Below are positions 35,190-50,913 of a stretch of 61,700 nt of DNA, piece by piece. The notes below the pieces were generated by a model, which saw nothing but the letters and a program-made list of their open reading frames with translations, was not told the DNA's origin and searched no databases. Where the stretch lies: positions 1 to 61,700 of IMG/VR virus record IMGVR_UViG_3300044681_000784. One strand, 5' to 3'. This DNA comes from a virus. Taxonomy: Duplodnaviria > Caudoviricetes. The translations under genes and the position numbers were made by a program. Every line of letters starts with the position of its first letter. The first letter of the stretch is position 1.

Positions 35190-36815
35190 TTAACTTTGGG
35201 TTTCATATGAACGGGCCATCGTTACAATGGCGTTAGTACTCAAAATCGTAGTGGCAACACTAACCGCATTCTCCAACGCACTCCGGGTTACCTTCATCGG
35301 ATCAACAACACCAAGCTTGAACAAGTTCCCAATGGCACCCGTCTTCAAACAAATCCCCTCGTTGTACGTCAAAGCATTGTCACTATAAACCCCAAGGTCA
35401 CAGTACCCGGAGTTCAAAAGGATCTGACGCAACGGAGCACCAATAGCACTCGAGATGATCTCCCTCGCAGCCATGTGCTCTGCACCATCACGAACCCTCA
35501 CAGCATCGTTAAAGTTCTCAGAGATGTGGTGCAACGCCCTACCTGCCCCGGGAAGAATACCCTCCTCTAAAGCACTGCGAACAGCACACACCGCATCGTC
35601 CACCCGGTCAAACAACTCCTTCTGCTCAATGTCTGTGTTTCCACCAACAAAGATCACACCTACTCCACCGGATAACGAGGCAATCCTGCTCAAGATAAAC
35701 TCCCGGTCCTCCTTCCTACTCGACTCCTCATACGCATCGCGAAGCTGAGCAACCCTGCGATCAACCTCCTCGCCATCGGTCCGGTAGTCCGAGTTCACAA
35801 TAACCGTACTGTCACGACTAACCACAACCTTGGCAGCGTGGCCCAAGTCCGCGTAGGTCATCAACGACAAGTCATCACCTGTCTTCTCAGAGAAGTATGT
35901 AGCACCAACACTAACGGCAATGTCACTCATCAACTCGTGCTGCTTGTACCCAAACTGAGGTGGCTGTATCGCAACAACCTTCAAGTTGTTCTTAATCTTG
36001 TTCGCAGCCAACGTGTTCACAACATTTGTACTGCAAGGAGCAATGATCAACAACCTCTTGTTTTCAGAAATCACCGGCTTCAACACCTGCTCAATCTGCA
36101 AAATATTACTGATCTCAGCGTCCGACACCAAGATCATCACGTCCTCATAAACAACCTCGTCCCTCTTCTGATCGTTTACGAAAAGATTACTCAAGTATCC
36201 CCTCTCAACCCTAAACCCATGAGAAATCTCAGAGTAAGTCTCCGAGTTCTGAGAACGCTCAACGGTAACAATACCGTCCCGACCAACCTCGTTGTACACG
36301 TCCGCAATAATACGGCCAATCTCCTTGTCATTGTTCGCGGATATAGTAGCGACGTCTAACAGCATCTTCTTACTAACTTGTTTCTTTCGAGTCTTTAGGA
36401 CGTCGACTACCGTATCCACCAATCTTGTCATCTCCCTCAAAACCTCCGTCCTGTTCAACGAAGTGTTACTCCCCAAAACCCTCATCCCATTCTCAACCAT
36501 GGCCTCCGTCAAAACAATAGCCGTAGTGGTGCCATCACCGGCAACCGTAGCGGTACGATCCGCCGCTTGCTTCATCATACGAACAGCTAAGTTCTCAACC
36601 GGATCCAACAAGTCAACAGACTTCGCAACAGTAACACCATCCTTGGTCACCGTCATGCCACCAAGATGATTGCTCGACTCAATCAGCACAGTGTTGCCAC
36701 TCGGACCTAACGTGCTCTTCACAGCACCGGCCATCTTCTTTACACCACTTAACAGCTTTCTCCGGCCATCTTCGCCGAACACCAAGTCCTTTGGTGAGTA
36801 TCCAATTTCATTCAT
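35190..36815 (-). CDS. groEL: Chaperonin GroEL (541 aa)
   Basis: TLGP.G, TKDGVTVAK, AGDGTTTA, SAN.D, DRVDDA..A...A.EEGI..G.G and DP.KV.R.AL.NA.S.A motifs; no GGM tail; promoter at 36834-36841. Confidence 0.95.
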   Translation of the reverse strand: MNEIGYSPKDLVFGEDGRRKLLSGVKKMAGAVKSTLGPSGNTVLIESSNHLGGMTVTKDGVTVAKSVDLLDPVENLAVRMMKQAADRTATVAGDGTTTAIVLTEAMVENGMRVLGSNTSLNRTEVLREMTRLVDTVVDVLKTRKKQVSKKMLLDVATISANNDKEIGRIIADVYNEVGRDGIVTVERSQNSETYSEISHGFRVERGYLSNLFVNDQKRDEVVYEDVMILVSDAEISNILQIEQVLKPVISENKRLLIIAPCSTNVVNTLAANKIKNNLKVVAIQPPQFGYKQHELMSDIAVSVGATYFSEKTGDDLSLMTYADLGHAAKVVVSRDSTVIVNSDYRTDGEEVDRRVAQLRDAYEESSRKEDREFILSRIASLSGGVGVIFVGGNTDIEQKELFDRVDDAVCAVRSALEEGILPGAGRALHHISENFNDAVRVRDGAEHMAAREIISSAIGAPLRQILLNSGYCDLGVYSDNALTYNEGICLKTGAIGNLFKLGVVDPMKVTRSALENAVSVATTILSTNAIVTMARSYETQS

Positions 36816-36927: not shown

Positions 36928-37097
36928 ATGACAGAAATGTCGATTCCTTCCTCCCCTACTCTCTCTCTATTTTAACTTCACACGCAACTTTTTTTTATTA
37001 TTTCATTTCGCTTTTAAAATCGACATTATCGACATCTTATTGATTATCAGTACTATTTTCGACATTAAATCGACATTAAAATGTCAGTAATTGACAT
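36928..37097. repeat. Origin-like element, copy 1 (ATGTCGA/TCGACAT iterons in inverted arrangement)
   Basis: Arms at 36928-36943 and 37020-37035 flank a CTACTCTCTCTCTA/T-rich spacer; extra TCGACAT at 37059 and 37070. Confidence 0.7.
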
Positions 37098-37141
37098 ATA
37101 TAGAAGTAAAAGAGAGAAAAGTAGGTAGGTATAGATAAAAG

Positions 37142-37160
37142 AAAAGGGGCCTAAGCCCCT
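37142..37160 (-). terminator. Terminator after 37186..37419
   Basis: Minus strand AGGGGC-TTAG-GCCCCTTTT. Confidence 0.65.
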
Positions 37161-37185
37161 AATCTCGATAACCAAAAAACATATA

Positions 37186-37419
37186 TCAACGTCGCTTAAT
37201 GGGCATCGTAGTCAACATCTGATACCCTAACTCCTTCTCCATCTCAGCACGACGAATACCCTCAGCAATCATGCTCACCTTCTTCTCACGCTTCATGTCA
37301 CTCTTCAACTGAGCAGCTCTCTGAATTCCATTCATACTGCATGGACGATTATTGATCAAACGACCACCGCGAACATCCAACCCATTGGATATCGACTTCA
37401 TAATAATAGGCTTTTTCAT
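37186..37419 (-). CDS. Hypothetical protein (77 aa); first gene of the leftward arm
   Basis: Start MKKPIIMK follows the TATCTTTG promoter at 37434-37441; the upstream part of the 235-aa track ORF is repeat-derived. Confidence 0.65.
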   Translation of the reverse strand: MKKPIIMKSISNGLDVRGGRLINNRPCSMNGIQRAAQLKSDMKREKKVSMIAEGIRRAEMEKELGYQMLTTMPIKRR

Positions 37420-37459
37420 AGTAAGTGTTTTGGCAAAGATACAAAAAGGTTCAGATACA

Positions 37460-37940
37460 CAGGGGCTGAGGGTTCCCCCCTGCTTTGGCGCGGCCGGGCC
37501 CGATGCGAAACCGCCCCTGCGCGAAGGTGGGGGGGGTGCTCTCGGCTTGGCGCAGCTCGGATTTTTGGCGTTTTTCTGCCATGCCCATGCTGTGCTGTTC
37601 CCATGCCGACAAATCTGCCATGCTCCCGATATCTGCCATGCATCCGCATCCGCATCCGCTCCATGCTCCATGCTCCCATCCCCATGCTCCCAATGATCCC
37701 CATGCTCCATGCTCCATGCTCCATGCATCCGATGTGCTGCGCATCCGCATCCATGCATCCGCTGTGCATCCGATTCGTCCCATATTTCGCAAACATTAGG
37801 GACAGGCCGAGCGCACCCAATATCTGCCCAATGACTGCCAAACCAAATGCCAACAATCGGATTTCCCCCGATTATCCCTACCAAATCTGCCATTGTGTCA
37901 GGTCAAAAGAAGGATGACTACCCCCCATCCATGCTCCCGA
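37460..37940. repeat. GC-rich box followed by a strand-biased CCATGC/GCATCC short-repeat field; probable genome terminus/packaging region
   Basis: G-run near 37526-37539; about 14 CCATGC and about 8 GCATCC, all on the + strand; lies at the divergence point of the two arms. Confidence 0.6.
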
Positions 37941-38140
37941 TGACTAAACTCACAAAAAAAATTGCGCTCTACAGCCCTTTGATAGCAAGGGATTCAGAAT
38001 TTTAACATTTTTTTTTGCTTCCCACATTTGGTAGTTTAAAAACTTCTAACGTACTTTGTCATGTTGCTAGTCAAAACATGAACAAAAACTTGTATATATA
38101 TAACCACACGCACGATAATAACCACACACACGATATCACT

Positions 38141-38175
38141 AATCACTAATCACTAATCACTAATCACTAATCACT
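38141..38175 (+). repeat. (AATCACT)5 tandem repeat in the leader of the first early gene
   Basis: Five perfect copies; the same heptamer recurs before several early start codons. Confidence 0.9.
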
Positions 38176-38183
38176 TATCAATC

Positions 38184-38681
38184 ATGAAAATCGCAAGAAG
38201 AATGTATCTAAACATCGGGAAAGCTAACAATCCCTTTGGACAATTTACGGATGAACAATTTGCAGACCTTCTATATAGTCTGCCCGACATTCACAGCAAA
38301 CCACACGTCGAAACCCATGTTGGAGAATGGGAAGGTCAGCGCGAAGAGACCTTTGTGGTAGACCTTATACACTATGATGATGACGCATCATCAAGAACAG
38401 AATCATATTACAAGTTTATCAGCACATTGCTATCCTTCACTACTCAGGATGCCATTGGAGTAATTTCCTTTGATGGCAGAGTAGATGAATCTGCAGGATA
38501 TGTAGAACGCGTTTGGCTGAATGGAGCGGAATTGAGGGAGTATTACTTCAGCAGTCCTCGTCTATTTTGGCATTACGGAGTAGAGCAGAAATATGAATTT
38601 AACAATGAATTCTTCATCATGCCATCTACCATAACTGATGTAGAGCGCGAAGCACATCAAAGAACGCTAAACTTGAAATAA
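38184..38681 (+). CDS. Putative SAM lyase (T3 SAMase-like) anti-restriction protein
   Basis: G-E-W-E-G-Q-R-E-E-T and Q-D-A-I motifs align by eye with the T3 SAMase G.Y...EE.T...QDCV motifs; first rightward gene. Confidence 0.5.
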   Translation: MKIARRMYLNIGKANNPFGQFTDEQFADLLYSLPDIHSKPHVETHVGEWEGQREETFVVDLIHYDDDASSRTESYYKFISTLLSFTTQDAIGVISFDGRVDESAGYVERVWLNGAELREYYFSSPRLFWHYGVEQKYEFNNEFFIMPSTITDVEREAHQRTLNLK

Positions 38682-38685
38682 AAAA

Positions 38686-38703
38686 TGTCTCTTCGAAGAG
38701 ACA
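38686..38703. promoter_or_regulatory. Perfect 18-bp palindrome TGTCTCTTCGAAGAGACA, copy 1 of 5
   Basis: Identical copies at 40119, 40168, 41897 and 43721. Confidence 0.9.
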
Positions 38704-38716
38704 AAATTCCAAACCC

Positions 38717-38920
38717 ATGATTAAAACTAAAAAAATATCATCAGGTCATTACCAAGGTACATACAAGAGCATTGGCTTCAAGGTCATCAAATCTATTCTG
38801 CCAAGCAATGAAGTAGTATGGTATTACCAAATCGGGAATGAGAAGGTGCATGATTTCCATGGGAGCAAATTTGAAGCAATTCAGTCTTTGATATCTTGGA
38901 TAGACGAGACAAAATCTTAA
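38717..38920 (+). CDS. Hypothetical early protein (67 aa)
   Basis: ORF bounded by the palindrome and heptamer repeats. Confidence 0.7.
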   Translation: MIKTKKISSGHYQGTYKSIGFKVIKSILPSNEVVWYYQIGNEKVHDFHGSKFEAIQSLISWIDETKS

Positions 38921-38961
38921 TCACTAATCATTAATCACTAATCACTTAAATCTTATCAATC

Positions 38962-39822
38962 ATGACAAACAAACTTCAAGCAAAATTGGGAATTAACAAG
39001 GTGAATTCTCTAAAAAGCAAAATCGATGCGAGCAATGAGAAATTGGCTCAAAACTACATTGCCATTGGCAAAATCATCGCAGAAGGCTCACTATGGGCAG
39101 ACAGCAAGGAAGGGAAGGAATTGCTGAGAGCGGAAGGTTTAACCAAAGCCGATGTGCTTACTGCCTATGGATACAGCCGTTCTTGGGCATACAAGCTAAT
39201 TGCTGTGTCTAATGTTGATGACGAGACATTGGCTGCGTACCTTGGCCAAGGCAATGTGGAATTCAATGTTGCTGACCTACTGAATTTCATTAACGCTACA
39301 GCGGAAGGTGAAGGTGAAGGTGAAGGTGAAGGTGAAGGTGAAGGTGAAGGTGAAGGTGAAAGCCAATCTAAGCCATCTACCTTGGCGAATTTAACCTTCC
39401 ATTTTGCTGCTGAATCGGTAAAGGTTAGGGTTACTGATGATGGCAAAGTTCACACCAAGAGTGACCTTGATAGCATCCGATTGGCATTGGCAGAACTTAC
39501 GCGAATTGTCGCGGAAGCAGATGCTCAGGCTCAGGCAGATGCCAAGGCTAAGGCTAAGGCAGATGCTCAGGCTCAGGCCAAGGCTCAGGCCAAGCCTACT
39601 CCAATCAAAGATTTCTCCAATGCCCTTGCATATGTTGGTGTAGATGCGCTGAAGGGAAAGGGAGGAATCCTGAATGTGGATAGCTTGCAGTATGTGGAAT
39701 TCGGGAATGAGACGTTCTTCAATGAATCGGGAGAATTGGGCAATGCCGCATCCGAATTCGTAGCGTCTCATGGATGGTCTTATCAGGTCGAAGAACCCTC
39801 TCACTTCTATGTAGCAAAGTAA
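38962..39822 (+). CDS. Early protein with possible DUF3102-like HTH, (EG)9 linker and Ala/Lys/Gln linker
   Basis: IAIGKII...YGYSRSWAYKLI pattern; (GAAGGT)9 at 39304-39357. Confidence 0.7.
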   Translation: MTNKLQAKLGINKVNSLKSKIDASNEKLAQNYIAIGKIIAEGSLWADSKEGKELLRAEGLTKADVLTAYGYSRSWAYKLIAVSNVDDETLAAYLGQGNVEFNVADLLNFINATAEGEGEGEGEGEGEGEGEGESQSKPSTLANLTFHFAAESVKVRVTDDGKVHTKSDLDSIRLALAELTRIVAEADAQAQADAKAKAKADAQAQAKAQAKPTPIKDFSNALAYVGVDALKGKGGILNVDSLQYVEFGNETFFNESGELGNAASEFVASHGWSYQVEEPSHFYVAK

Positions 39823-39836
39823 GTTAGGCAGTTATC

Positions 39837-39872
39837 GGATGGCGCAGTGGATTGGTCTGCTGCCCATCCTTT
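39837..39872 (+). terminator. Hairpin/terminator after 38962..39822
   Basis: GGATGG-CGCAG...CTGCTG-CCCATCC-TTT. Confidence 0.5.
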
Positions 39873-39895
39873 AACAATCCTTAACTATTCAGCTA

Positions 39896-39926
39896 TTGCA
39901 AATGTTCACCTTTATTATAACCTTTG
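39896..39926 (+). promoter_or_regulatory. Early promoter motif TTGCAwATGTyC...CTTTG (copy 1 of 3; others at 43665-43695 and 46091-46121)
   Basis: Three copies, each spanning exactly 31 bp. Confidence 0.65.
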
Positions 39927-39949
39927 TCAAACATTCAAACACACACACT

Positions 39950-40096
39950 ATGACACGTTACCAAATCGAACAGGAATCTATCCGCATCCGCAATGAGCGG
40001 AGGGCAAACCTGAGGAGCGCATTCATCCTCGGCATTGGGATTGTGGGATTGGCATTCAGCTATGCCATCATCATGATTCACTTCCTTGGCCAATAG
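39950..40096 (+). CDS. Small membrane protein (48 aa)
   Basis: Basic N-terminus plus one TM helix; downstream of the promoter. Confidence 0.6.
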   Translation: MTRYQIEQESIRIRNERRANLRSAFILGIGIVGLAFSYAIIMIHFLGQ

Positions 40097-40102
40097 TGGC
40101 CA

Positions 40103-40163
40103 TGCTGCCAATGGTTTTTGTCTCTTCGAAGAGACAAAATCGGTTCGATTCCGATGGCAGCAC
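40103..40163 (+). ncRNA. tRNA-like minihelix (acceptor stem plus T-arm) with the palindrome in place of the D and anticodon arms
   Basis: TGCTGCC(40103-40109)/GGCAGCA(40156-40162) 7-bp stem; ATCGG-TTCGATT-CCGAT T-arm; 24-bp palindrome at 40116-40139. Confidence 0.6.
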
Positions 40164-40215
40164 AAAATGTCTCTTCGAAGAGACAAAATCGCTAATCACT
40201 AATCAATTATCAGCA

Positions 40216-40647
40216 ATGCAAACAATCGCACAGCAGCTAAACGTAACTGAATTTCCTTTCGAAATCCATGATGCTAATGGAAATCTAATATACTATGAAG
40301 AGTCAAGTTCATATTGGTGGAAGCGTGAATACGATTCTAATGGCAATCTAATCTACCATGAAGAGTCAAGTTCATATTGGTGGAAGCGTGAATACGATTC
40401 TAATGGCAATCTAATCTACCATGAAAATTCCGAAGGCTTTTGGCGGAAATATGAATATGATGCTAATGGTAATCAAATCTACTTTAAAGATTCCGATGGC
40501 TATTGGAGCAAATGTGAATACGATTCCGATGGCAATCGAATCTACTTTGAAGATTCCTGTGGATATTGGAGTAAACGTGAATGCGATTCCGATGGAAGTC
40601 TAATCTACTATGAAGATTCCGATGGACTAATCATCGACAATCACTAA
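40216..40647 (+). CDS. 21-aa tandem repeat (YD-like) protein, paralog A
   Basis: 5.5 repeats of YDSNGNLIYxExSxxYWxKxE; true start MQTIAQ. Confidence 0.8.
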   Translation: MQTIAQQLNVTEFPFEIHDANGNLIYYEESSSYWWKREYDSNGNLIYHEESSSYWWKREYDSNGNLIYHENSEGFWRKYEYDANGNQIYFKDSDGYWSKCEYDSDGNRIYFEDSCGYWSKRECDSDGSLIYYEDSDGLIIDNH

Positions 40648-40654
40648 TCAAACC

Positions 40655-40684
40655 TATAGGGGCGCAGCATCCTTCAACACTGCA
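40655..40684 (+). repeat. 30-nt intergenic element, copy 1 (pseudoknot-like)
   Basis: TATAGGGGCGCAGCATCCTTCAACACTGCA, identical at 42345-42374. Confidence 0.85.
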
Positions 40685-40708
40685 CTAATCCTTTAATACC
40701 AAATAACA

Positions 40709-41035
40709 ATGGAAAAGTTAAATCAAATCATCGAATCAATGGCCTATGCCAAATTTCAAAATGATTCATGCCCCATCAAACGCAATGAATTCATAATGGA
40801 GAATGCTACATTGGGCGAATTCATTGACTACTTTCAAACCCGAAAGACATCCGATGGCACATCTTGGCATGACCGATATCATGACCTAATTTTGGGAAAA
40901 ATGGGCGGACTAAACGAGTCCTTTGTCGAAGATGTGCTATGGCCAAAACTTAAAGACAATTACATCGAAGAAGTGGTGAAAGGTCTTGAGGATAAACTTG
41001 ATGCTCAGTATAAAATAACCATTGAACAAATCTAA
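40709..41035 (+). CDS. Hypothetical early protein (108 aa)
   Basis: ORF in the early array. Confidence 0.7.
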   Translation: MEKLNQIIESMAYAKFQNDSCPIKRNEFIMENATLGEFIDYFQTRKTSDGTSWHDRYHDLILGKMGGLNESFVEDVLWPKLKDNYIEEVVKGLEDKLDAQYKITIEQI

Positions 41036-41041
41036 TCAGCT

Positions 41042-41293
41042 ATGTCACTATCAGCGTTAATAGAGAGAAACAAAAACGTCATTCTGCCTGAGCTATATGC
41101 TTGGGCAGAGACCTTCCGATTGTCCGATTTCCCTTCTCGCTTTGATGAAGAGGAAGACAATTCATTCGATGAAGTATGGTCATTGGCCGAGAGATTGGAC
41201 AATGGTCAATGTACGGAGGATGACTACGAAGAAATCATCTTTCACATCGAACAGATTAATTATAACGAAACCAAAATCAATTTAACCATTTAA
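41042..41293 (+). CDS. Small acidic early protein (83 aa)
   Basis: ORF in the early array; Asp/Glu-rich. Confidence 0.7.
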   Translation: MSLSALIERNKNVILPELYAWAETFRLSDFPSRFDEEEDNSFDEVWSLAERLDNGQCTEDDYEEIIFHIEQINYNETKINLTI

Positions 41294-41306
41294 TCAATTA
41301 TCAGCT

Positions 41307-41876
41307 ATGGCTACATCTAATTTTATCACCAACAATGCAAGCAGAATCTTTGTCATTCCGATTCAAGAAGAATTTGATTTCGATGATGCTGCTGCCAATG
41401 TGACTGCATCCCTTATCGGCATTGGCCATGAGTCTACGAGAGAATCATGGGACAGGTACGATGGCAGATACATGACGGAGAAGTTTATGAATGAATGCGT
41501 TTGGAATCCTGAGAATGGAAAGCCAATTGAATTTGATGTCCACATTAAAACTTGCATCAGGTCAGGTTACTATTCCGATGCCAATTTGGATTGGGAGATT
41601 GGCTATTCCTTGGAAGGATATGGCGAATTGGACATCCAATCCGTTCCTGATGAGGACTACATCAAGGAGTTATTGGACAGGAATTCGTATGCTGTATCAG
41701 GCGAGACCGATTCCGATATCTTTGACCTGTTGGCATCCATGATAAGGGAGAGGATTGTCCGAATGATGTCGAGTCTTGTCGAAGAGACAGAGAATGAATT
41801 CCGGCAGAACAGCAGCGCATCACTTCGATGTGTTGGTAGATTCTCCAATGGCGAAGCAATTTACGAACAAGAGTAA
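41307..41876 (+). CDS. Acidic early protein (189 aa)
   Basis: RSGYY..ANLD and FSNGEAIY motifs. Confidence 0.7.
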   Translation: MATSNFITNNASRIFVIPIQEEFDFDDAAANVTASLIGIGHESTRESWDRYDGRYMTEKFMNECVWNPENGKPIEFDVHIKTCIRSGYYSDANLDWEIGYSLEGYGELDIQSVPDEDYIKELLDRNSYAVSGETDSDIFDLLASMIRERIVRMMSSLVEETENEFRQNSSASLRCVGRFSNGEAIYEQE

Positions 41877-41951
41877 CCATTTAATCACCACAAAAATGTC
41901 TCTTCGAAGAGACAAAATCACTAATCATTAACCATTTAATCTTTATCACTT

Positions 41952-42338
41952 ATGTTGGTAGCAATCAATTTAGACATTGACCTTGAGTCAATATTCGTAA
42001 CGGCCTTAGAAGGCGGAAGTAACTATTGGATTGACTTCAGCTCATCCACATTCAAACATCTCAAGGATAAGTATTCGCAGATGTCATTCTCCGAGCGAGT
42101 TTACAATGAATTCATCAGCGGAGGAGCCATTGATGTCTTGGATGTTGAAGGTGATGAATCGGATGTCATCGGCCAAATATCCTTGGCCACTGCACCTTCG
42201 AGACTCGCCAAGATGTTTGAAGATGGCTTCATTTGGAGTCATGCAGACATTTCAGAGTTATTGGATGGAACTGCTGATGCCATTGCGTCAGACATTGTAC
42301 TTCAGTACCTTGCGTTAGGCGAAATAGTTTACGGATAA
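41952..42338 (+). CDS. Conserved phage hypothetical protein (128 aa)
   Basis: TALEGGSNYW...DA...D..LQ...LGEIVYG pattern. Confidence 0.7.
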   Translation: MLVAINLDIDLESIFVTALEGGSNYWIDFSSSTFKHLKDKYSQMSFSERVYNEFISGGAIDVLDVEGDESDVIGQISLATAPSRLAKMFEDGFIWSHADISELLDGTADAIASDIVLQYLALGEIVYG

Positions 42339-42344
42339 CAAAAA

Positions 42345-42374
42345 TATAGGGGCGCAGCATCCTTCAACACTGCA
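42345..42374 (+). repeat. 30-nt intergenic element, copy 2
   Basis: Identical to 40655-40684. Confidence 0.85.
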
Positions 42375-42398
42375 TTAACCATTTTATCTTTATCAATT

Positions 42399-42629
42399 AT
42401 GAACATTTTCATCATTAACACTACAGCCTTTGAAGAAGAGGATTTCTTTTTGCTGACTGACCTGAGTGAGCAAGACATTGTCGAAGTGATTACACCATTG
42501 GTGAATCAGGCGCGAGACGGATACGAGGAGTATGACAATGACCTGTTGGTCAATGCTCTCATTGAGCGTTATCCGAATGCCAAGATTGAGCATTACTGCA
42601 AAGATGCGATTGATTTAATAACCTTTTAA
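42399..42629 (+). CDS. Small acidic early protein (76 aa)
   Basis: INTTAFEEEDF.L.T.L ORF in the array. Confidence 0.7.
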   Translation: MNIFIINTTAFEEEDFFLLTDLSEQDIVEVITPLVNQARDGYEEYDNDLLVNALIERYPNAKIEHYCKDAIDLITF

Positions 42630-42638
42630 TCAGCAGCC

Positions 42639-42896
42639 ATGATACATAACGAGCATTTCGATAAGGCCGACAGAACCTACGAGGTTTGGCACGACAACAA
42701 TGGCAATGCCATTCACATCTTAATCAAGGATGGGGAGGCCATCATCTACCCTACAATCTATGACCTATTTCAGCATTTCCTATGCGGAATGGATGTTGAG
42801 AGAATGTACGTTGATGATGATGTGCTGAACTCAATCTGTGAATTAAACATCTACAATTACTACGAAATCAAAAACAAAATCAATTATCAATCATGA
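42639..42896 (+). CDS. Hypothetical early protein (85 aa)
   Basis: ORF with ATGA coupling to the next gene. Confidence 0.7.
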   Translation: MIHNEHFDKADRTYEVWHDNNGNAIHILIKDGEAIIYPTIYDLFQHFLCGMDVERMYVDDDVLNSICELNIYNYYEIKNKINYQS

Positions 42897-43633
42897 AAAC
42901 AATCGCGCAGAATTTAAACATCAAGGACTTTCCCTTTGAGATTAAGGATGCTAATGGCAATCTAATCTACCATGAAGATTCCACTGCCTTTTGGTGCAAA
43001 TGTGAATGCGATTCTAATGGCAATCTAATCTACTATGAAGATTCCGATGGCTTTTGGCGGAAACATGAATACGATTCTAATGGAAATCAAATCTACCATG
43101 AAAATTCCGGTGACTATTGGAACAAATGTGAATACGATTCCAATGGTAATCAAATCTACTTTGAAAATTCCTATGGCTATTGGAACAAACGTGAGTACGA
43201 TTCCAATGGCAATGAAACCTACTTTGAAGATTCCGGTGACTATTGGAACAAATGTGAATACGATTCCAATGGCAATCGAATCTACTTTGAAGATTCCTGT
43301 GGATATTGGAACAAACGTGAGTACGATTCCAATGGCAATGAAACCTACTTTGAAGATTCCGATGGTGAAATCATCGACAATCGGATTAATGAAGATGTCA
43401 AATTGGTAAATGAAGATGAGAGCGCGAGACAAGTCCTTGAGGGCATGGGGTACTATGTCCGGAATCTATGGTCAGTAAGTGACGTGAACGGATTCAATGG
43501 CAAGGTTTCAAAAGAGGAGGCTCTTAAGATTTTGGCTTCAGCACTAACCCATCCGTACACCATGGAAGTAGTCTTTGGTTTGATTAAAGATGGAGTCAGG
43601 GATTTTGGATATAAAATCGAAGACGAGTCTTAA
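42893..43633 (+). CDS. 21-aa tandem repeat (YD-like) protein, paralog B, with extra C-terminal domain
   Basis: 6.5 repeats plus an ~80-aa C-terminal domain (GYYVRNLWSVSDV). Confidence 0.8.
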   Translation: MKTIAQNLNIKDFPFEIKDANGNLIYHEDSTAFWCKCECDSNGNLIYYEDSDGFWRKHEYDSNGNQIYHENSGDYWNKCEYDSNGNQIYFENSYGYWNKREYDSNGNETYFEDSGDYWNKCEYDSNGNRIYFEDSCGYWNKREYDSNGNETYFEDSDGEIIDNRINEDVKLVNEDESARQVLEGMGYYVRNLWSVSDVNGFNGKVSKEEALKILASALTHPYTMEVVFGLIKDGVRDFGYKIEDES

Positions 43634-43753
43634 CAACATTTAAGAATTCATGGGGCATGGCCTATTGCATATGTCCCATGTTCTTCCAACCTTTGACAAT
43701 CAAATCACATAACACAAAAATGTCTCTTCGAAGAGACAAAATTCTAAATCAAA

Positions 43754-44239
43754 ATGGAAAAATTAATCATTAACTTTCAACAGAATTTTGCGTGGACTCG
43801 CTCCGCAAATAATGTTCTTTCCGTAACATCAAACAATGAAGACATCGTGCTTATTGTAGAGCATTTCGACATCTCAAGACTCGAATACGAAGACGCACTG
43901 CCACAGATGGCTGTTGTCGGTGATGGATTCTTCTTCGTGTACGATGGTAGTGATTTCTATCTTGGAGGCCAAGAGCCTATAGAAATATCGGAGACTGAGG
44001 TGTTTTTCGAGGCCACAGGTGACGTATCAAAGCCTATCTACTACCATTACAATGAGTCATGGCACTGCTCCCTACACAACGAAGAGACCGACAAGATTCT
44101 TCGCGAGGCTAACTCCATGCTTACCAATGGCAAGGTGAGTAAGATTGTTGGTGACGAAGCTGTTGACTCCATCTACGTTAGAAGGGGAGCGTATCGTGGT
44201 GCTAAGTTTATTCAAGAACAAATAATCGCAGCCAAATGA
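43754..44239 (+). CDS. Hypothetical early protein (161 aa)
   Basis: ORF after promoter copy 2 and palindrome copy 5. Confidence 0.7.
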   Translation: MEKLIINFQQNFAWTRSANNVLSVTSNNEDIVLIVEHFDISRLEYEDALPQMAVVGDGFFFVYDGSDFYLGGQEPIEISETEVFFEATGDVSKPIYYHYNESWHCSLHNEETDKILREANSMLTNGKVSKIVGDEAVDSIYVRRGAYRGAKFIQEQIIAAK

Positions 44240-44472
44240 CATCCGAGCGTATAGTTTTTCGGGGAGTTACCTACCCATTGTACATCGTATCTGTGGATGG
44301 AATTGACCATCATCTTTCTGTTGTTGCGTTAGCAGATGCAATCTTCGATGAGAACGAAGAGTTCGTTTCGGATGAGGCATACAGAATAGACATGGGCATA
44401 TCCTACTACCTGAGTGATGACGAGTTAAATCTTTCTACAATTCAAATTCAAAACTTAATTAGAAACCTATGA
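44236..44472 (+). CDS. Small acidic protein (78 aa)
   Basis: ATGA-coupled ORF; A..ID..I.YY motif. Confidence 0.7.
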   Translation: MTSERIVFRGVTYPLYIVSVDGIDHHLSVVALADAIFDENEEFVSDEAYRIDMGISYYLSDDELNLSTIQIQNLIRNL

Positions 44473-44984
44473 GACCGATTGATTATGTAAACAGAATGGC
44501 AGAGCCATACAGAAGTGAGTTCATTGCAAACACCTTGAAGTGGAGGGGAAGGGAGGAAGGAGCAAGGTGGCTGAACGAATACTCAGATAGATGGAATGGA
44601 TTCAACCAAGTAATCTATGGAGCATTCCCTTGGAGCGTAACAGAGCAAGGCAGACGCTATTGGGCGGCAGCCTACAGGCTTTATGGCGGAAAGAGTTTCA
44701 GTCCGCTAACTGCTGAAGACTTGGCCGAGTGGTCGAACATCACTGCTGTTGGAGATGAGACAGATGAGATTACCTTTTGGCAGGTTATTTTTAATGGAGA
44801 GATTCATTCCGAACACAAGAACTACACCGATGCTTTCACTGTCTTTGACAGGCTTAAGTACGGAGAGGGAGAGGAAGTCATCGGCCTTAGAGAGTTCTTG
44901 TCTCGGTCTGTCGAGTTATTTCAAAGCAGATGGGCACTTAACAGAGGTCAGCACCACATCCAAACAACCACAATACGGAGATGA
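44469..44984 (+). CDS. Hypothetical protein (171 aa)
   Basis: ATGA-coupled ORF; AF.W..T.QG..YW motif. Confidence 0.7.
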   Translation: MRPIDYVNRMAEPYRSEFIANTLKWRGREEGARWLNEYSDRWNGFNQVIYGAFPWSVTEQGRRYWAAAYRLYGGKSFSPLTAEDLAEWSNITAVGDETDEITFWQVIFNGEIHSEHKNYTDAFTVFDRLKYGEGEEVIGLREFLSRSVELFQSRWALNRGQHHIQTTTIRR

Positions 44985-45238
44985 TTTGGAAGCACATCAT
45001 TGAGCCATTGACAGGTCAAATAGACAGATGGTTCTTCAGCCTATCGATGGCTGACAAGCGAGACATATTGGGTGAGGGGATTGGTATGTATGGGATGCTT
45101 AGGCTTTGGGGTTCTATGGACTTGGAGCAGAAGATTCGGACATACGATATGTACCATGAGACTCACCCATCCTCATCAGTAGGTATATTTGTTGGGGAAT
45201 CAAACGATTCATTAACCATTAAATTCAAAACACCATGA
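44981..45238 (+). CDS. Hypothetical protein (85 aa)
   Basis: ATGA-coupled ORF. Confidence 0.6.
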   Translation: MIWKHIIEPLTGQIDRWFFSLSMADKRDILGEGIGMYGMLRLWGSMDLEQKIRTYDMYHETHPSSSVGIFVGESNDSLTIKFKTP

Positions 45239-45735
45239 ATAACTTAATGTATATTTTTGGAGGAGTCTTAGGCTTCTTCATTGGGTTCTTTGTGATACCA
45301 AAAGACAACGGCATTTCAAAGTACATTCAAGACGAGCCTACTATTGACTCGTGTGTGTCAGTAGTCCATGAATCTCCGGAAACAAAACAATTCCCTGACT
45401 CGCTGATGACATTGGTTGATGCCATGATTCAGGTAGAGAGCAGTGGAAATCATTGTGCCTACAACAAGAGGGAGGATGCTGTTGGATGCCTACAGATAAG
45501 ACCTATCATGGTCAGGGAGGTGAACAGGCTGTTGGGTAGGGAGGAGTACACGATGAATGACAGGTGGGACTACACCAAGTCTTTGGAGATGTTCCTTGTT
45601 GTGGTGGAACACCATCATCCTGATGGATCATTTGAGGGCATAGCGAGGTGTTGGAATGGTGGCCCGAATGGTATGCGGATGGAGTCTACCAAGACGTATT
45701 GGGAAAAAGTTTTGTCAAGGATAGGTTCTTCTTAA
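45235..45735 (+). CDS. Membrane-anchored lysozyme-fold protein (i-type/destabilase or SLT-like)
   Basis: N-terminal TM; AMIQVESSG, A.GCLQI, AR.WNGGP.G...YW motifs. Confidence 0.75.
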   Translation: MNNLMYIFGGVLGFFIGFFVIPKDNGISKYIQDEPTIDSCVSVVHESPETKQFPDSLMTLVDAMIQVESSGNHCAYNKREDAVGCLQIRPIMVREVNRLLGREEYTMNDRWDYTKSLEMFLVVVEHHHPDGSFEGIARCWNGGPNGMRMESTKTYWEKVLSRIGSS

Positions 45736-45759
45736 TTTTTTCTTAGTTTTGCAGACAAT

Positions 45760-45867
45760 AGTCAGGTGGCGTAAGTGTGAATGAATAGCACTGAAAAGGT
45801 AACGCATCAGTGGGATAGCATCCCTTAATATTTCTGATAGATGCAAGTTCGAATCTTGCCCTGACTA
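45760..45867 (+). ncRNA. tRNA-like RNA with expanded D and anticodon loops
   Basis: AGTCAGG/CCTGACT acceptor, GCGT/ACGC D stem, ATCAG/CTGAT stem, GCAAG-TTCGAAT-CTTGC T-arm; promoter TAGTTTTG at 45744-45751. Confidence 0.7.
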
Positions 45868-45930
45868 CAACTTGTCATTAAAGGTGCAAAAACCAAAATG
45901 TTGTGTGCCTTTATGACCACTTAATAATAT

Positions 45931-46004
45931 TGCGGAGTAGTAGCAGTTGGTAGCTCGTCAGTTTCATAAGCTGAAGGTCGTGGGTTCGAGTCCCACCTCC
46001 GCAA
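45931..46004 (+). tRNA. tRNA-Met (CAT), initiator-derived variant
   Basis: Cloverleaf TGCGGAG/CTCCGCA, TCAGT-TTCATAA-GCTGA, GTGGG-TTCGAGT-CCCAC; no encoded CCA. Confidence 0.85.
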
Positions 46005-46234
46005 CATTTAATTCAATTTAGTATGAGCGATTTTATCAGAAGGAAGATCTTAATCTTTAAATATCTTTAACAAATAAAGTGGAACTGCGCTTGCATATGT
46101 CCATTATTATTATAATCTTTGTGTATCAATATAATAAACAATGAAGTTTTTTATTTGGTAGTTACAAACAGATTGCATATCTTTGTTGGCGAAGCGAATG
46201 CGCCCTATGTCATTCGCACACAGACACTAATCAA

Positions 46235-46537
46235 ATGAAATCAAAAGTGTTCAAACAAATCTCATCCAAGGTCATGGAAGCATTTGACTTGGATGTAGAG
46301 ACAATGTCCTCGGACAGAAGAAGGAGCAGCGTTGAGGCTCGTCAAATGCTTTACTACATCGCAAGGCGGAGGAACATCAGGCTCGTCGACATTCAAGACC
46401 TGATGAACGATGTGTTCGGGGTGAGGCCATCCCACACCTCAGTCATCCATGGCATCAAGACCACAGAGAAGAAGGTCAGGGAGGACAATGACTTCCACGT
46501 TGTAGCAAGTAGAATCAATCAATCAGTAACCATTTAA
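46235..46537 (+). CDS. DnaA domain-IV-like HTH protein
   Basis: R.R..V.ARQM.YY......I......HTSVIHG.K; TATCTTTG promoter at 46178-46185. Confidence 0.7.
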   Translation: MKSKVFKQISSKVMEAFDLDVETMSSDRRRSSVEARQMLYYIARRRNIRLVDIQDLMNDVFGVRPSHTSVIHGIKTTEKKVREDNDFHVVASRINQSVTI

Positions 46538-46547
46538 ATCCATTCAT

Positions 46548-47177
46548 ATGGCAAATCCAAAGTCGGTCTTCGAGACCTTAAACAGCGTTCCTTTCAGGGA
46601 CAAAATCGAGAACAAAGGTGGCTTAGACTACCTCTCATGGGCATGGGCATGGTCTATGCTAAAGGCAAACTACCCGAATGCCAATCGTATTGTGTACGAA
46701 GATCCGGCCACAGGCTTGAACTTCTTCACAGATGGCAAGACAGCCTACGTCAAGGTTGGTATTTCAATCGATGGCCTTGAGCATATCGACTACCTACCAA
46801 TCATGGACTTCCGCAACAACCCCATCCTAATTGACAAGCTAACAGCGACAGACGTGAACAAAACAATTCAGCGTTCTACAGCCAAGGCAATTGCCATGCA
46901 TGGATTGGGCATCCAACTATGGAGTGGCGAGGACATCCCCGGCGAAGCACCGGCTACATCTCCGGCCATGGGCACACCGAAGCAGTCTGCATCGGTTCAG
47001 CCAACACCACAAACTCAACAAGCTGAGTCGCTAAAGACCGGCACAGAGAATTGGGACAGAGTTGTAGCTTACGTTACTGCGAACAAAGAGATTGGCTTTG
47101 ACAAAATCATTGCCCAACTTAAGCGCAAGTACACCATCGCTCCATCGGTTGCCAACAAAATCAAGGAGTTGCTATGA
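46548..47177 (+). CDS. Single-strand annealing protein (Sak3/DUF1071, Rad52-like)
   Basis: YLSWAWAW, LPIMD.RN and NK..QR...KAIA.HGLG..L..GED.P motifs. Confidence 0.85.
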   Translation: MANPKSVFETLNSVPFRDKIENKGGLDYLSWAWAWSMLKANYPNANRIVYEDPATGLNFFTDGKTAYVKVGISIDGLEHIDYLPIMDFRNNPILIDKLTATDVNKTIQRSTAKAIAMHGLGIQLWSGEDIPGEAPATSPAMGTPKQSASVQPTPQTQQAESLKTGTENWDRVVAYVTANKEIGFDKIIAQLKRKYTIAPSVANKIKELL

Positions 47178-47920
47178 AGAACAAAAGTCAGATAGTCGAA
47201 AGGCTGAGAGATGACTCAGATTACTATGGGGAGTTTGGCAGGAAATTCCTGTCGAACTCCGACATAGGAGTCCTACTCTCAAACCCGAAGGACTTCCGTA
47301 ATGGGACTCGGCCCGACTCAAAGGCTCTGTTAGAAGGTAGGTACTTCCATCAGCTATTGCTTGAGCCTGAGAAGGCTTTTGATGTCATGGTGGTTGACGC
47401 ATCGTCAAGGAACACCAACATCTACAAGGAGTACATCGCATCAACAGGGTTAGACATAGTACTTCTTCAGAAGGAGAAGGAGCACATCGAGAGGCTCGTC
47501 TCAGTAATGAAGTCGAACATCTACTACTACGATGAGATCTACAAGCCATCGAACAAGTACGAAGTTCCACAGGTCAAGGAGATCATGGGAGTTCTTTGGA
47601 AGGGGAAGGCGGACATAGAGTCAGACAGCATACTTATTGATGCCAAGACCACGTCCGACATCCACAAGTTCAAGTACTCTGCGAAAGCCTACAACTATGA
47701 CTCTCAGGCTTGGCTTTACGAACAGCTATTCGGGAAGCCATTGGTGTTCTTTGTCATCGACAAGGAGACCGAACAGCTTGGAGTCTTCCGGCCTACGGAT
47801 GAGTTCCTTGAGTCAGGCAAAGACAAGGTCAGAAGAGCCGTTGAAGTTTACAACAGGTACTTCGGCCCGACAGCCTACGATAGTGTTGAAAACCACTACA
47901 TCGACTTAGAGTTAAATTAA
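47174..47920 (+). CDS. PD-(D/E)XK exonuclease (RecE/DUF3799-like)
   Basis: LS.S.I, G..FH..LLEP, KGKAD, ID.KTT and Y..QA..Y motifs; coupled to the SSAP gene. Confidence 0.8.
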   Translation: MKNKSQIVERLRDDSDYYGEFGRKFLSNSDIGVLLSNPKDFRNGTRPDSKALLEGRYFHQLLLEPEKAFDVMVVDASSRNTNIYKEYIASTGLDIVLLQKEKEHIERLVSVMKSNIYYYDEIYKPSNKYEVPQVKEIMGVLWKGKADIESDSILIDAKTTSDIHKFKYSAKAYNYDSQAWLYEQLFGKPLVFFVIDKETEQLGVFRPTDEFLESGKDKVRRAVEVYNRYFGPTAYDSVENHYIDLELN

Positions 47921-48006
47921 ATCAATCAAATCCCGAGTGCAAACTCCTCGGACACAAGGGAAGAGAAATCAATTATTAATCCGAGGAAAACAAATACCAT
48001 TTAGTT

Positions 48007-48300
48007 ATGAGCGAACAAGAAAAGATTTTCGCAGACGGCTTTTCATTTAAGCGTCAAGAGTCAGCACCCGACTTCGTTGTTGGAAGCCTATCCATGAAGG
48101 TCGACGAGGCCATTGAGTTCATGAAGACCAACTCTAAAAAGGGATGGCTGAACCTACAGATCAAGCAAGCTCGTAGTGGAAACTACTACATTGAACTTGA
48201 CACATGGGAGCCAAAGCCACAAGGCGGTCAGCGTCAGGCTCCGGCTCCGGCGGCTGTTCCCGATCAGGCTCAGGCTCAAGAAGACGAGCTGCCGTTCTAA
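48007..48300 (+). CDS. Putative single-stranded DNA-binding protein
   Basis: Small beta domain, flexible linker and acidic DELPF C-terminus; lies in the recombination module. Confidence 0.65.
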   Translation: MSEQEKIFADGFSFKRQESAPDFVVGSLSMKVDEAIEFMKTNSKKGWLNLQIKQARSGNYYIELDTWEPKPQGGQRQAPAPAAVPDQAQAQEDELPF

Positions 48301-48321
48301 GGCCAAGGCCAAACAGAATCA

Positions 48322-48353: not shown

Positions 48354-48356
48354 CTG

Positions 48357-48510: not shown

Positions 48511-50913
48511 ATGACATCAAGCGTCACAATATTTCAGAACATCAAGGAGACATCTACCCCTTTCTTTCGTCCTGTAGAGTCTATACTCACAAGGATAAGG
48601 GATGGAGCGTCTAAGGACTTGGTAAAAAAGATCCGGAACGAAAAGCGTAAACCGGAAAGGCAAGAGATGAAGAAGCTTTTGCCGGCCATATGTTTCTCAG
48701 GAACATTCAACAAGCGCAATGACTCCTCCATCATAGACCACAGCGGAATCATCTGCTTGGACTTCGATGGATACGAGAAGCAGAAGGACTTGCTCTCCGA
48801 TAAGGAGAGTCTTTCAAAAGACAAGTACGTCTACTCGGTCTTCATATCTCCATCAGGCAACGGCCTGAAGGTGTTGGTAAAGATTCCGGCAGATCCTGAG
48901 AACCACATCAACTACTTCAACTCTCTTCAGCACCACTTCAACTCTCCGTACTTTGACAAGTCAACGAAGAACATCAGTCGGGTTTGCTACGAGTCATACG
49001 ATCCTTTGATCTACGTCAACGAGAACTCGTTCCTTTGGGACAAGATAGAGGAGGCAGAGTACAACGAGGTGATCAAGTACAGAGATGCCCCGACCATCCC
49101 AATCACAGATGAGAATAAGATTGTGGACATACTCGTGAAGTGGTGGACAAAGAAGTACCCGATGATCGAGGGACAGCGAAATCAAAATGCCTTTGTGTTG
49201 GCCATGGCATTCAATGACTTTGGTGTCAACAAAAGCTTGGCCGGATACGTCCTCAATCAATACGCAACCCAAGACTTCAGCGTATCAGAGATAGGCAGAA
49301 CCATTGACTCAGCGTATCAGAACTCAAGAAACTTCGGCACCAAGTACTACGAAGATGAGGACAGGGTAAACCAAATCAAAGCCAAGATCAGGAGAGGAGT
49401 ATCGAAGAAAGAAGTTCGGTCTCAGCTTTTGGAGTCTGACTTGGATGGAGACGTAATCGATGCCGTTCTAAACAGGATCGAGGATGAGAACACCAAGCTT
49501 ACCTTTTGGGCCAAGAACGATAAGGGAGCAATCAAGATCGTTCACATCCTGTTCAAGCAGTTCTTAGAGGACAATGGGTTCTACAAGTTCTGCCCCGAAG
49601 GAAGTAAGAACTACGTCTTTGTGAAGGTGACAAACAACCTAATCGACCATGCGTCCGAGAAAGAGATCAAGGACTTTGTCCTGAACCATCTCCTTGAGTT
49701 GGATGACGTGAACGTCTACAACTACTTCGCAGATCAAACCCGATTCTTTAAGGACGAGTTCCTGTCAATGCTTAACACCATCGACATCTACTTCATTGAA
49801 GACACAAAGGACACAGCGTACCTGTACTACCGGAACTGCGCGGTCAAGATCACAAAGGAAACGGTTCAGCCTATAGACTACTTGGACTTGGGCGGATACG
49901 TTTGGAAGGATCAGGTCATTGACAGGAACTTCATCCAATGCAAGACCACACCATCCTTTGCGTTCAAGAGATTCATCGAGAACATCTGCAACAAAGAGGT
50001 AGAAAGGATCGAGTCCATGCAGAGTACAATTGGATTCATGATGCATGGGTACAAGAACTACTCGTACTGCCCTGCCATCATCCTTAACGATGAGGTGATA
50101 TCCGACAACCCCGAAGGCGGAACAGGGAAGGGGATCGTGATGAACGCACTATCTCAGATGAAGAAGGTGGTTACCATAGATGGAAAGTCATTCACATTCG
50201 AGCGATCATTTGCTTATCAGTTGGTGTCTGCCGACACGCAGATCCTTGTGTTCGATGACGTGAAGAAGCACTTCGACTTCGAGAGGCTGTTCAGCGTTGT
50301 TACAGAGGGACTGACGCTCGAGAAGAAGAACAAGGACGCCATTAAGATTCCATTCAGCCGATCACCAAAGATTGCGATCACTACGAACTACGCTATCAAA
50401 GGAGCCGGCAACTCCTTCGCAAGAAGGAAGTGGGAACTTGAACTTCACCAATACTACACCAAGGAGTACACCCCTTTCGATGAGTTCGGGAAGCTGTTCT
50501 TCGGTGATTGGAACGATGACGATTGGTGTGAGTTCGACAACTACATGGTGTCTTGCCTGAAGAACTACCTGAGAACAGGTCTTGTTAAGAGCAAGTTTGT
50601 CAACCTCAAGGTTCGTCAGCTATCTGCTGAGACAAGCCATGACTTCATCGAGTGGTGCGGATTGGTTGATAACGCTGAGCCGGCCAAGCTATTGGAGACA
50701 GGGATCAGGGTTTACAAGCAAGAGATTTACTACGAGTTTATCTCCGAGTACCCCGACTATGGGCCGAAGAGTAGGATGACAATCTCAAGAACGAAGTTCT
50801 ACAAGTGGTTGGTATCTTATGGCCTATTCAAACATGGGATAGTTCCCGAGGAGGGAAGAGATCCGATGGGACGATGGATTATGTTTAGAACAAAAGATGA
50901 ATCAAATGACTGA
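48511..50913 (+). CDS. Primase-helicase (BT4734-like N-terminal primase domain, PriCT-like domain, SF3-type helicase)
   Basis: ICLDFD, F.SPSGNGLK, SR.CYES.D; EGQRN; Walker A GGTGKG, Walker B LVFDD, ITTN. Confidence 0.85.
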   Translation: MTSSVTIFQNIKETSTPFFRPVESILTRIRDGASKDLVKKIRNEKRKPERQEMKKLLPAICFSGTFNKRNDSSIIDHSGIICLDFDGYEKQKDLLSDKESLSKDKYVYSVFISPSGNGLKVLVKIPADPENHINYFNSLQHHFNSPYFDKSTKNISRVCYESYDPLIYVNENSFLWDKIEEAEYNEVIKYRDAPTIPITDENKIVDILVKWWTKKYPMIEGQRNQNAFVLAMAFNDFGVNKSLAGYVLNQYATQDFSVSEIGRTIDSAYQNSRNFGTKYYEDEDRVNQIKAKIRRGVSKKEVRSQLLESDLDGDVIDAVLNRIEDENTKLTFWAKNDKGAIKIVHILFKQFLEDNGFYKFCPEGSKNYVFVKVTNNLIDHASEKEIKDFVLNHLLELDDVNVYNYFADQTRFFKDEFLSMLNTIDIYFIEDTKDTAYLYYRNCAVKITKETVQPIDYLDLGGYVWKDQVIDRNFIQCKTTPSFAFKRFIENICNKEVERIESMQSTIGFMMHGYKNYSYCPAIILNDEVISDNPEGGTGKGIVMNALSQMKKVVTIDGKSFTFERSFAYQLVSADTQILVFDDVKKHFDFERLFSVVTEGLTLEKKNKDAIKIPFSRSPKIAITTNYAIKGAGNSFARRKWELELHQYYTKEYTPFDEFGKLFFGDWNDDDWCEFDNYMVSCLKNYLRTGLVKSKFVNLKVRQLSAETSHDFIEWCGLVDNAEPAKLLETGIRVYKQEIYYEFISEYPDYGPKSRMTISRTKFYKWLVSYGLFKHGIVPEEGRDPMGRWIMFRTKDESND

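Follow-up and report, generated by a model that had tools for sequence, protein, structure and literature searches.

A GATC-free early gene cluster in an uncultured podovirus, consistent with region-specific selection on first-exposed DNA

The IMG/VR record IMGVR_UViG_3300044681_000784 is a complete virus record of 61,700 bp, analysed here as one stretch of DNA (the window) that is cut within a giant gene of ~3,900 codons spanning both of its ends. The window contains a cluster of small early open reading frames (ORFs), here called the early cluster or block, in which the tetranucleotide GATC is missing up to the last 110 bp and outside which GATC occurs at normal frequency. Cleared blocks recur at the same map position in related phages for other words. 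We lean towards the reading that the early gene cluster is kept free of a restriction target by region-specific selection on first-exposed DNA.

GATC and other short words in the window

Exact counting gave 223 GATC in the window. The initial annotation had noted that none lies between the copies at 37695 and 45626, and the exact count agrees: these two copies bound a gap of 7,931 bp, and the second-longest gap is 1,814 bp. The gap fits the early cluster, reaching from the divergent promoter region to 110 bp short of the end of the last early ORF. For 37699-45625, a maximal-order Markov model using the region's own GAT, ATC and AT counts predicted 47.3 copies against the 0 observed, and the rate in the remainder of the window predicted 32.9. 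This Markov comparison, which the initial annotation had proposed as a check on composition, rules out trinucleotide composition as the cause of the gap, inside which GAT and ATC are both plentiful. When the synonymous codons of 16 early ORFs were shuffled, 28.8 +/- 4.2 GATC were expected compared to 1 observed (the copy at 45626), and 0 of 300 shuffles were as low; the same shuffle of the plus-strand genes at 46235-54616 gave 35.2 expected and 42 observed. Early DNA as a whole holds 2 GATC against 47.2 expected, and the genome outside it 221 against 248.8 (~89%). The total of 223 against 298 expected does not amount to genome-wide avoidance, and GATC is thus a word absent from the block and of normal frequency elsewhere. 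Among 1,772 strand-symmetric 4-, 5- and 6-mers with enough copies, the largest gap of GATC ranked first in significance (P~8e-11). The primase gene, for which roughly 19 copies had been estimated by eye, is indeed GATC-rich, although the number needed correction (Table 1). The GATC depletion is therefore real, non-compositional and highly significant.

Scarcity of CCGG in the same block had been put forward as a second sign of avoidance. The positions stand, with no CCGG between 37494 and 41801 and then copies at 41801, 43107, 43233, 43459 and 45376, but the avoidance does not: the block holds 5 CCGG against 10.0 in the Markov model and 6.5 +/- 2.1 in the codon shuffle, where 95 of 300 shuffles were as low. 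The scarcity of CCGG in the block is compositional, and the oddity is its excess in the remainder of the window, where it is over-represented (269 against 170.5 expected). AGCT is partly depleted in the early ORFs alone, with 7 copies against 20.2 in the codon shuffle (0 of 300 shuffles) and 25 against 24.6 in the bulk. CTAG is nearly missing from the entire window (2 against 94 expected) and is thus avoided genome-wide. We also observed that the non-palindromic 5-mer AGTTG/CAACT, with 148 copies in the genome, is absent over 37306-45868, that is, over the full early block. ACAAC and CAACC have gaps resembling that of AGTTG/CAACT, and CAAC occurs 13 times against 37 expected. The absence of AGTTG/CAACT could reflect a second, asymmetric target.

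Site avoidance in related phages

In GenBank, the sole relative at the DNA level was MW202828, an uncultured podovirus of 60,850 bp. By terminase protein, the closest isolates were Flavobacterium Elemovirus (44%), Cellulophaga podoviruses (37%) and Tenacibaculum phage Gundel (31.5%, TerL). Elemovirus is organised alike: it combines a giant structural gene and GroEL/GroES with an early cluster and with an annealing protein plus exonuclease. The window is a ~62 kb podovirus of Flavobacteria-phage type with a hypervariable early cluster. In IMG/VR, at least 586 contigs carry a related primase, and 80 of them were kept as comparison loci; together with the window these form a set of 81, of which 48 were usable (at least 3 kb of early DNA and at least 5 kb of bulk). 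A second set comprised 24 complete genomes rotated to a common origin. The conserved order is GroEL and p235, then the early cluster, then o100, Sak, Exo and primase. The nearest relatives, G001 and G002, have primases 91-92% identical in amino acids and ~83% in nucleotides.

Avoidance of 4-bp palindromes in this family is absolute and lineage-specific, the word being GATC, CTAG, CCGG, GGCC, CATG, CGCG or AGCT. Zero copies were observed of GATC (253 expected) and CTAG (90) in G001, of GATC (235) in G002, of GGCC (53) and CATG (195) in G003, of CTAG (111) and CGCG (44) in G005, and of GATC (193) and CCGG (26) in MW202828. The cultured Elemovirus elemoE avoids CATG, CCGG, CGCG and GGCC over its whole genome. 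As many as 45 of the 80 relatives' loci have no GATC at all, and 27 of the 48 usable loci avoid it in both early and bulk DNA. At the 21 GATC sites of the window's primase gene, G001 and G002 have synonymous alternatives, and 1-5 of these sites are common to each of the 13 GATC-bearing relatives compared. The shared sites suggest that the presence of GATC in bulk DNA came first and that the sisters G001 and G002 later purged it.

We then compared early with bulk DNA in the loci, using the 617 locus-site pairs with at least 8 copies expected in both parts. The word was avoided in both parts in 71 pairs, in early DNA only in 7 and in bulk DNA only in 0. The seven early-only cases are GATC in the window and in L061 (G003), CCGG in L012 (G002), L021 and L027, and AGCT in L033 and L046. 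In L061 (G003), GATC is present at 2 of 26.8 expected copies in early DNA compared to 61 of 94.7 in the bulk; in the early block of the sister G002, CCGG is truly absent (0 against 8.9-14.3 expected). Looser inspection adds AGCT in L015 (0 of 6.7 expected) and L059 (0 of 27.7), CCGG in L026, and CTAG in L020 and L083. Early clusters are not uniformly depleted, as the early DNA of L015 and L017 is enriched in GATC and CCGG yet lacks AGCT.

In the complete genomes, a largest gap was called significant at P<1e-4 with a local expectation of at least 8. For palindromes, 9 of 307 tests were significant, and 8 of these 9 gaps lie on the early cluster, which makes up about one eighth of the genome. 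The eight early gaps are of CCGG in G002, G003 and G013, AGCT in G005 and G016, GATC in the window, TTAA in G013 and TATA in G020; the sole palindrome gap elsewhere is of CATG in G009. Four of them, G002 CCGG (8,173 bp), G005 AGCT (7,666 bp), G016 AGCT (7,452 bp, 30 expected) and window GATC, each cover 93-100% of the cluster. Non-palindromic words reached significance in 6 of 2,856 tests, and 5 of these gaps fell in early DNA. As a separate observation, CAGG/CCTG is missing over 4.5-5 kb of early DNA in G008, G018 and G023, and CCTC/GAGG over 3.4 kb in G002. The initial annotation had proposed checking whether relatives with other gene content share the gap; in a more general form they do, having a clean block in the matching map position, with the missing word differing between them.

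Selection on the early cluster and its alternatives

Region-specific selection would clear the restriction target from the DNA of the early cluster alone. The block would be the DNA that is exposed and needs to be expressed before the phage is protected. It would most likely enter first, from a fixed genome end beside 37.7-38.2 kb, and the remainder would enter, or become vulnerable, once early proteins have neutralised a putative GATC-specific host nuclease. Sites lacking such protection (CTAG here) would be purged genome-wide. A positional restriction effect needs unequal exposure, the simplest cause of which would be polar or staged entry, and staged entry as in T5, T7 and Murciavirus would be the best mechanism for the block. 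Analogy with Gundel, described below, predicts a genome end between 37699 and 38183. We propose, tentatively, a wider reading in which word-free blocks may be footprints of DNA that enters or is exposed before protection, and enzyme-specific anti-restriction genes of the early cluster may decide, lineage by lineage, whether the purge is genome-wide or limited to the first ~8 kb. The ORFs at 38717-38920, 40709-41035 and 41042-41293 would then be possible inhibitors of GATC-cutting Type II enzymes. They are the sole window-specific early genes, with zero homologues in the 103 relatives' sequences searched, and are candidates for a lineage-specific anti-restriction function.

Several observations weigh against selection on first-exposed DNA, and some of them favour its main rival, a passive relic. 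This rival, which we consider less probable though a serious contender, holds that the early block, or its genes, recently recombined in from a genome-wide GATC avoider and is too young to have gained new sites, with no selection acting here. The many GATC-free loci described above, the nearest relatives G001 and G002 among them, would make donors common. Early clusters are mosaics with swapped alleles: the segment 41307-41876 is 89% identical to G002 and 39% to G001. The G+C content of early clusters (0.34-0.48) is decoupled from that of the bulk (0.33-0.445), exceeding that of the bulk in 17 of 24 genomes and falling below it in 7, among them the window with its sisters. Mosaic clusters with independent G+C imply that module exchange is real. 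A GATC-poor early block is found in only 1 of 10 GATC-bearing relatives (L061/G003), with L015 and L017 enriched as noted, and weaker site-poor blocks also lie outside early DNA, namely GATC at 9757-13174 in the structural genes of G005 (P~1e-4) and TCGA at 12059-21798 in REL. The bulk of L033 is itself AGCT-poor (44 copies compared to 69-78 in relatives), implying a graded rather than strictly regional purge. The loci are related, so that their counts are not independent events, and the cultured relative elemoE has no early-only gap. All relatives assemble as circles, and headful packaging, with its permuted ends, would make it impossible for a single fixed block to enter in stages. In searches of PHROGs, Pfam and the protein atlas, no early protein matched a known anti-restriction family. 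Taken alone, the missing bulk-only pattern is indecisive, since any imported site open to cutting by the host would be lost in either case; a relic also predicts its absence.

The history of the block does not readily fit a recent import. The early genes of the window are syntenic with those of G001 and G002 at 39-89% amino acid identity, and at the DNA level the block resembles the 80 loci only in patches (69-89% nucleotide identity). A megablast search of 37000-46500 against 50,697 phage records gave no match. When three early proteins were searched against IMG/VR, two had no close relative and the third matched only G002 at 89%; no donor was found. Neither close donor-like sequence nor broken synteny, the marks of a recent foreign block, was seen, and the G+C offset of the block is common to the sisters. 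A single recent block acquisition, which the initial annotation had named as able to explain the gap away, is thus made unlikely by synteny and the absent donor, and keeps only the standing given to the relic above. The block also contains 522 words one substitution away from GATC, 93 of them reachable synonymously, so that neutral DNA would show zero GATC only below ~0.017 substitutions per site, or ~0.1 at synonymous sites; an import would have to be younger than that. The sister G002 offers a clock. It was apparently released from the CTAG avoidance of its sisters and has regained CTAG to 13 of 17.7 expected copies in early DNA compared to 34 of 85.3 elsewhere, with identity to G001 of 86% in early DNA and 92.7% in the bulk, suggesting that neutral early DNA refills faster than bulk. 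In L033, orthologous early DNA (84-88% identity to four relatives) keeps 1 of 19 AGCT sites and the rest differ by single bases, while its bulk keeps 38 of 101 of the relatives' AGCT sites, which are partly shared between relatives. The alignments indicate point mutation within orthologous DNA as the way in which L033 shed its early AGCT sites. Only 3 of 48 loci avoid AGCT throughout, whereas 4 have an AGCT-free early block, so that donors would be too few to account for such blocks. A relic would further require the same accident to be repeated for CCGG, AGCT and GATC in at least 6 of 24 genomes, each time over the whole early cluster. Collectively, synteny, the lack of a donor, the L033 point mutations and the G002 CTAG clock argue for selection on the early DNA itself.

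Two further explanations dispense with either staged entry or restriction. In one, the genome enters at once and the integrity of early expression is what matters: a cut in the early unit would be fatal, leaving anti-restriction or repair functions unexpressed, and cuts elsewhere would be survivable by re-ligation, or by Sak/exonuclease recombination after inhibition of the nuclease. This would account for a regional effect whether or not the ends are permuted, is compatible with the circular assemblies, and finds a Sak-like annealing protein and an exonuclease directly past the block. It has no direct evidence in its favour, a lone genome, once cut, lacks a template for repair by recombination, and the early ORFs of Gundel adjoin a predicted fixed end, which favours polar entry; we regard it as improbable. 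We know of no demonstrated precedent for such an effect in the absence of staged entry, and no search for one was made. The other explanation is a cause other than restriction, at the regulatory or RNA level, for example binding of Dam/SeqA type, sequence-specific cleavage of early transcripts by a ribonuclease, or a phage nuclease that breaks down host DNA at GATC. Non-palindromic words are indeed missing too (AGTTG/CAACT here; CAGG/CCTG in G008, G018 and G023), yet significant gaps are ~14 times more frequent for palindromes (9 of 307 compared to 6 of 2,856). The word varies by lineage (GATC, CCGG, AGCT), which fits changing restriction enzymes better than one regulatory system, and other members of the family avoid these very words across their genomes. 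We therefore consider a cause other than restriction very unlikely.

Region-specific selection through staged entry calls for a fixed genome end and early protection. We rejected the 'DTR' flags as evidence of ends, since the terminal repeats, present in 12 of the 24 complete-genome records, turned out to be overlaps of 54-127 bp left by the assembler. The contig ends of 5 of the 24 genomes lie within 1.4 kb of the GroEL start, where local tandem repeats could equally break assemblies. Gundel alone among the relatives has predicted ends, with short terminal repeats reported as a PhageTerm prediction (PMC8776804). Its small early ORFs adjoin the left (predicted) terminal repeat. GATC is first encountered at 7,455 bp, CCGG at 6,913 bp and GGCC at 24,770 bp; the initial 11 kb contain 3 GATC where 19.1 are expected, and the whole genome 74 where 172 are expected. 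A literature search by title and abstract returned no paper on the genome ends of Elemovirus. Regarding protection, the initial annotation saw no methyltransferase in the window; six-frame searches of the window for four DNA methyltransferase families agree, as do Pfam scans of the ORFs, with the small ones covered in part. Many early proteins are acidic (pI, isoelectric point, 4.1-4.9), which is compatible with DNA mimics and is not evidence for them.

The early cluster, its surroundings and known systems

Table 1. Coordinates of the features discussed, as positions in the window.
Feature	Position	Strand	Basis or remark
GroEL-type chaperonin	35190..36815	-	landmark for aligning relatives
ORF 'p235', 235 aa	37186..37893	-	divergent from early cluster; holds GATC 37354 and 37695, the last two before the gap
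Repeat-rich head of early cluster	37440..38183	.	sequence reading; repeat families D3, D12, D14, D20
GATC-free stretch	37699..45625	.	exact count, Markov expectation and word scan
Early gene cluster, 16-17 small ORFs	38184..45735	+	ORF list, pI, upstream sequence, PHROGs, Pfam
Intergenic hairpin TGTCTCTTCGAAGAGACA, copy 1	38686..38703	+	fold -8.2 kcal/mol
Further exact TGTCTCTTCGAAGAGACA hairpin copies	40119-40136, 40168-40185, 41897-41914, 43721-43738		
Degenerate TGTCTCTTCGAAGAGACA hairpin copy	41773-41789		2 mismatches
Acidic protein of 21-residue YD/RHS-like repeats	40216..40647	+	63-bp repeats
Two ORFs, 40709-41035 (pI 4.8) and 41042-41293 (pI 4.1)	40709..41293	+	no homologue
Second 21-residue-repeat protein, paralogue of 40216-40647	42893..43633	+	63-bp repeats
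Two tRNA genes, 45760-45867 and 45931-46005 (tRNA-Met)	45760..46005	+	in the gap past the early cluster
First conserved genes past the block: DnaA-C-like HTH protein, Sak-like annealing protein, exonuclease	46235..47920	+	
Primase (BT4734-like N domain, DUF5906)	48511..50913	+	21 GATC

The features of the cluster and its surroundings are collected in Table 1. The head of the cluster contains a G+C-rich island, CCATGCTCC-type tandem repeats and six CTAATCA heptamers directly before the first start codon. It is probably largely non-coding and overlaps the doubtful 5' part of p235, whose match to relatives is limited to the C-terminal part. Most early proteins are acidic (pI 4.1-5.8), and most early starts have no upstream Shine-Dalgarno motif. 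Matches to sigma-70-type promoters were not above shuffles (20 compared to 26.7). None of the early proteins matched a PHROGs or Pfam family with known function, the sole matches being phrog_2355 (41952-42338), a weak SLT match (45235-45735) and a weak RHS-repeat match. The protein atlas search of the early proteins gave leads that were all below 0.9 and without families. The two paralogous repeat proteins share 81% nucleotide identity.

A perfect 18-nt hairpin is present in 5 exact and 1 degenerate copies, every one inside the early cluster, where 0.03 would be expected. Its 16-mer occurs 7 times in the sister G001, 4 of these within the early cluster of G001, and being common to both phages the hairpin is likely a conserved regulatory element, with no role assigned. 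The exact 23-nt hairpin with flanks was absent from IMG/VR. One hairpin copy lies in the anticodon region of an 85-nt tRNA-Lys(UUU) called by ARAGORN at 40079-40163, which falls below the Rfam gathering score and may represent either the remains of a tRNA-like element or a tRNA that has been interrupted.

From 37893 downward, the minus strand encodes GroEL, the terminase, the portal, crAss-muzzle-like tail proteins and the giant gene. The plus-strand genes begin at 38184, where the small ORFs lead away from the divergent region and precede the genes for recombination and replication; position and gene type thus fit the start of an early transcription unit. GATC reappears in the first conserved genes past the block, at 46701, 47536 and 47581, and a SNF2/ResIII helicase gene lies downstream together with the primase. 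The 370-bp spacer between p235 and GroEL holds five iteron-like ATCGACAT/TTGACAT repeats at 37019-37100, possibly an origin, a packaging site or a late promoter region. Near the primase start, a strong hairpin with a 13-bp stem is found at 48321-48350. The contigs of 7 of the 80 relatives end at most 260 bp upstream of the primase start, which may represent an assembly break point or a genuine discontinuity. The giant virion gene (54621-61643 plus 2-4603, minus strand) carries an HExxH motif and has a weak SprT-like match; its halves are out of frame across the junction, implying that a few bases are missing or duplicated there. An injected RNA polymerase of N4 or crAss type is not supported for this protein, as it has no D.DGD or D.D.D motif and gave only weak, sub-threshold Pfam matches. 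A PDB sequence search gave no match for either half of the giant protein or for TerL. Two minus-strand tail proteins, 7674-8480 and 10169-14941, match the crassvirus muzzle protein, with the C-terminal domain at 65.6 bits (above cut-off) and the N-terminal at 26.8 (just below); these matches link the tail of the family to Crassvirales. Other genes include a 2OG-Fe(II) oxygenase-like match below cut-off (25649-26131, minus strand), a MazG-type pyrophosphohydrolase (52874-53287, plus strand) and a PDDEXK endonuclease-like match just below cut-off (54203-54616, plus strand).

To our knowledge, regional rather than genome-wide site avoidance has experimental proof in few cultured phages (T5 relatives and the T7-like Murciavirus), and our literature search found nothing on restriction-site avoidance in phage early regions. 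T5 and its relatives are reported to be restricted only via sites in the first-step-transfer (FST) region (PMC10644984), with protection of the remaining genome attributed to early products (PMC10644984, PMC12455610). The window resembles the FST of T5 and other Tequintavirus phages, as described in these reports, in having a pre-early block of ~8-10 kb with mostly unassigned functions that is free of sites present elsewhere, which in the T5 group are tolerated in vivo. In contrast, T5 is a siphovirus with terminal repeats of 9.7-10 kb, a defined injection stop signal and an experimentally shown two-step transfer, whereas the window is a ~62 kb podovirus whose likeness is purely comparative, from sequence, and in which no early-gene homology to T5 was found. 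The likeness to T7 with its Ocr and to the Marinomonas Murciavirus (Autographiviridae) lies in a variable early region at the leading end, where the absence of motifs decides escape (PMC12455610). For Murciavirus, the report states that only motifs in the leading injected region count and that the leading-region effect should be absent in headful packagers (PMC12455610), and T7-type phages are described as expressing the anti-restriction protein Ocr before full entry (PMC12455610, PMC12707154). Theirs are Type I motifs with few sites per genome, whereas in the window a 4-bp palindrome with ~47 expected copies has been removed completely, with no recognised Ocr-, ArdA- or Arn-like protein and no phage RNA polymerase found. 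HF1-group haloviruses are reported to lack GATC and CTAG genome-wide via host restriction (PMC7230728); the window is like them for CTAG and many of its relatives for GATC, but its own GATC absence is regional. The leading regions of conjugative plasmids are likewise described as first-entering DNA that is poor in restriction targets and carries anti-defence genes (PMC12455610), although these plasmids transfer single-stranded DNA from oriT.

Together, these comparisons suggest that the signature known from T5- and T7-type phages also occurs in an uncultured family, where it concerns 4-bp palindromes and the avoided word changes from lineage to lineage. Sequence data by themselves now reveal the signature in phages of aquatic Bacteroidota that form an abundant, uncultured family. 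If the reading holds, genome polarity and the extent of first-exposed DNA would be inferable in uncultured phages, the block would mark where new anti-restriction genes should be sought, and genome-wide site counts would misjudge the restriction sensitivity of a phage. Under the wider reading, entry order and anti-restriction repertoires might even be deduced from metagenomic data alone.

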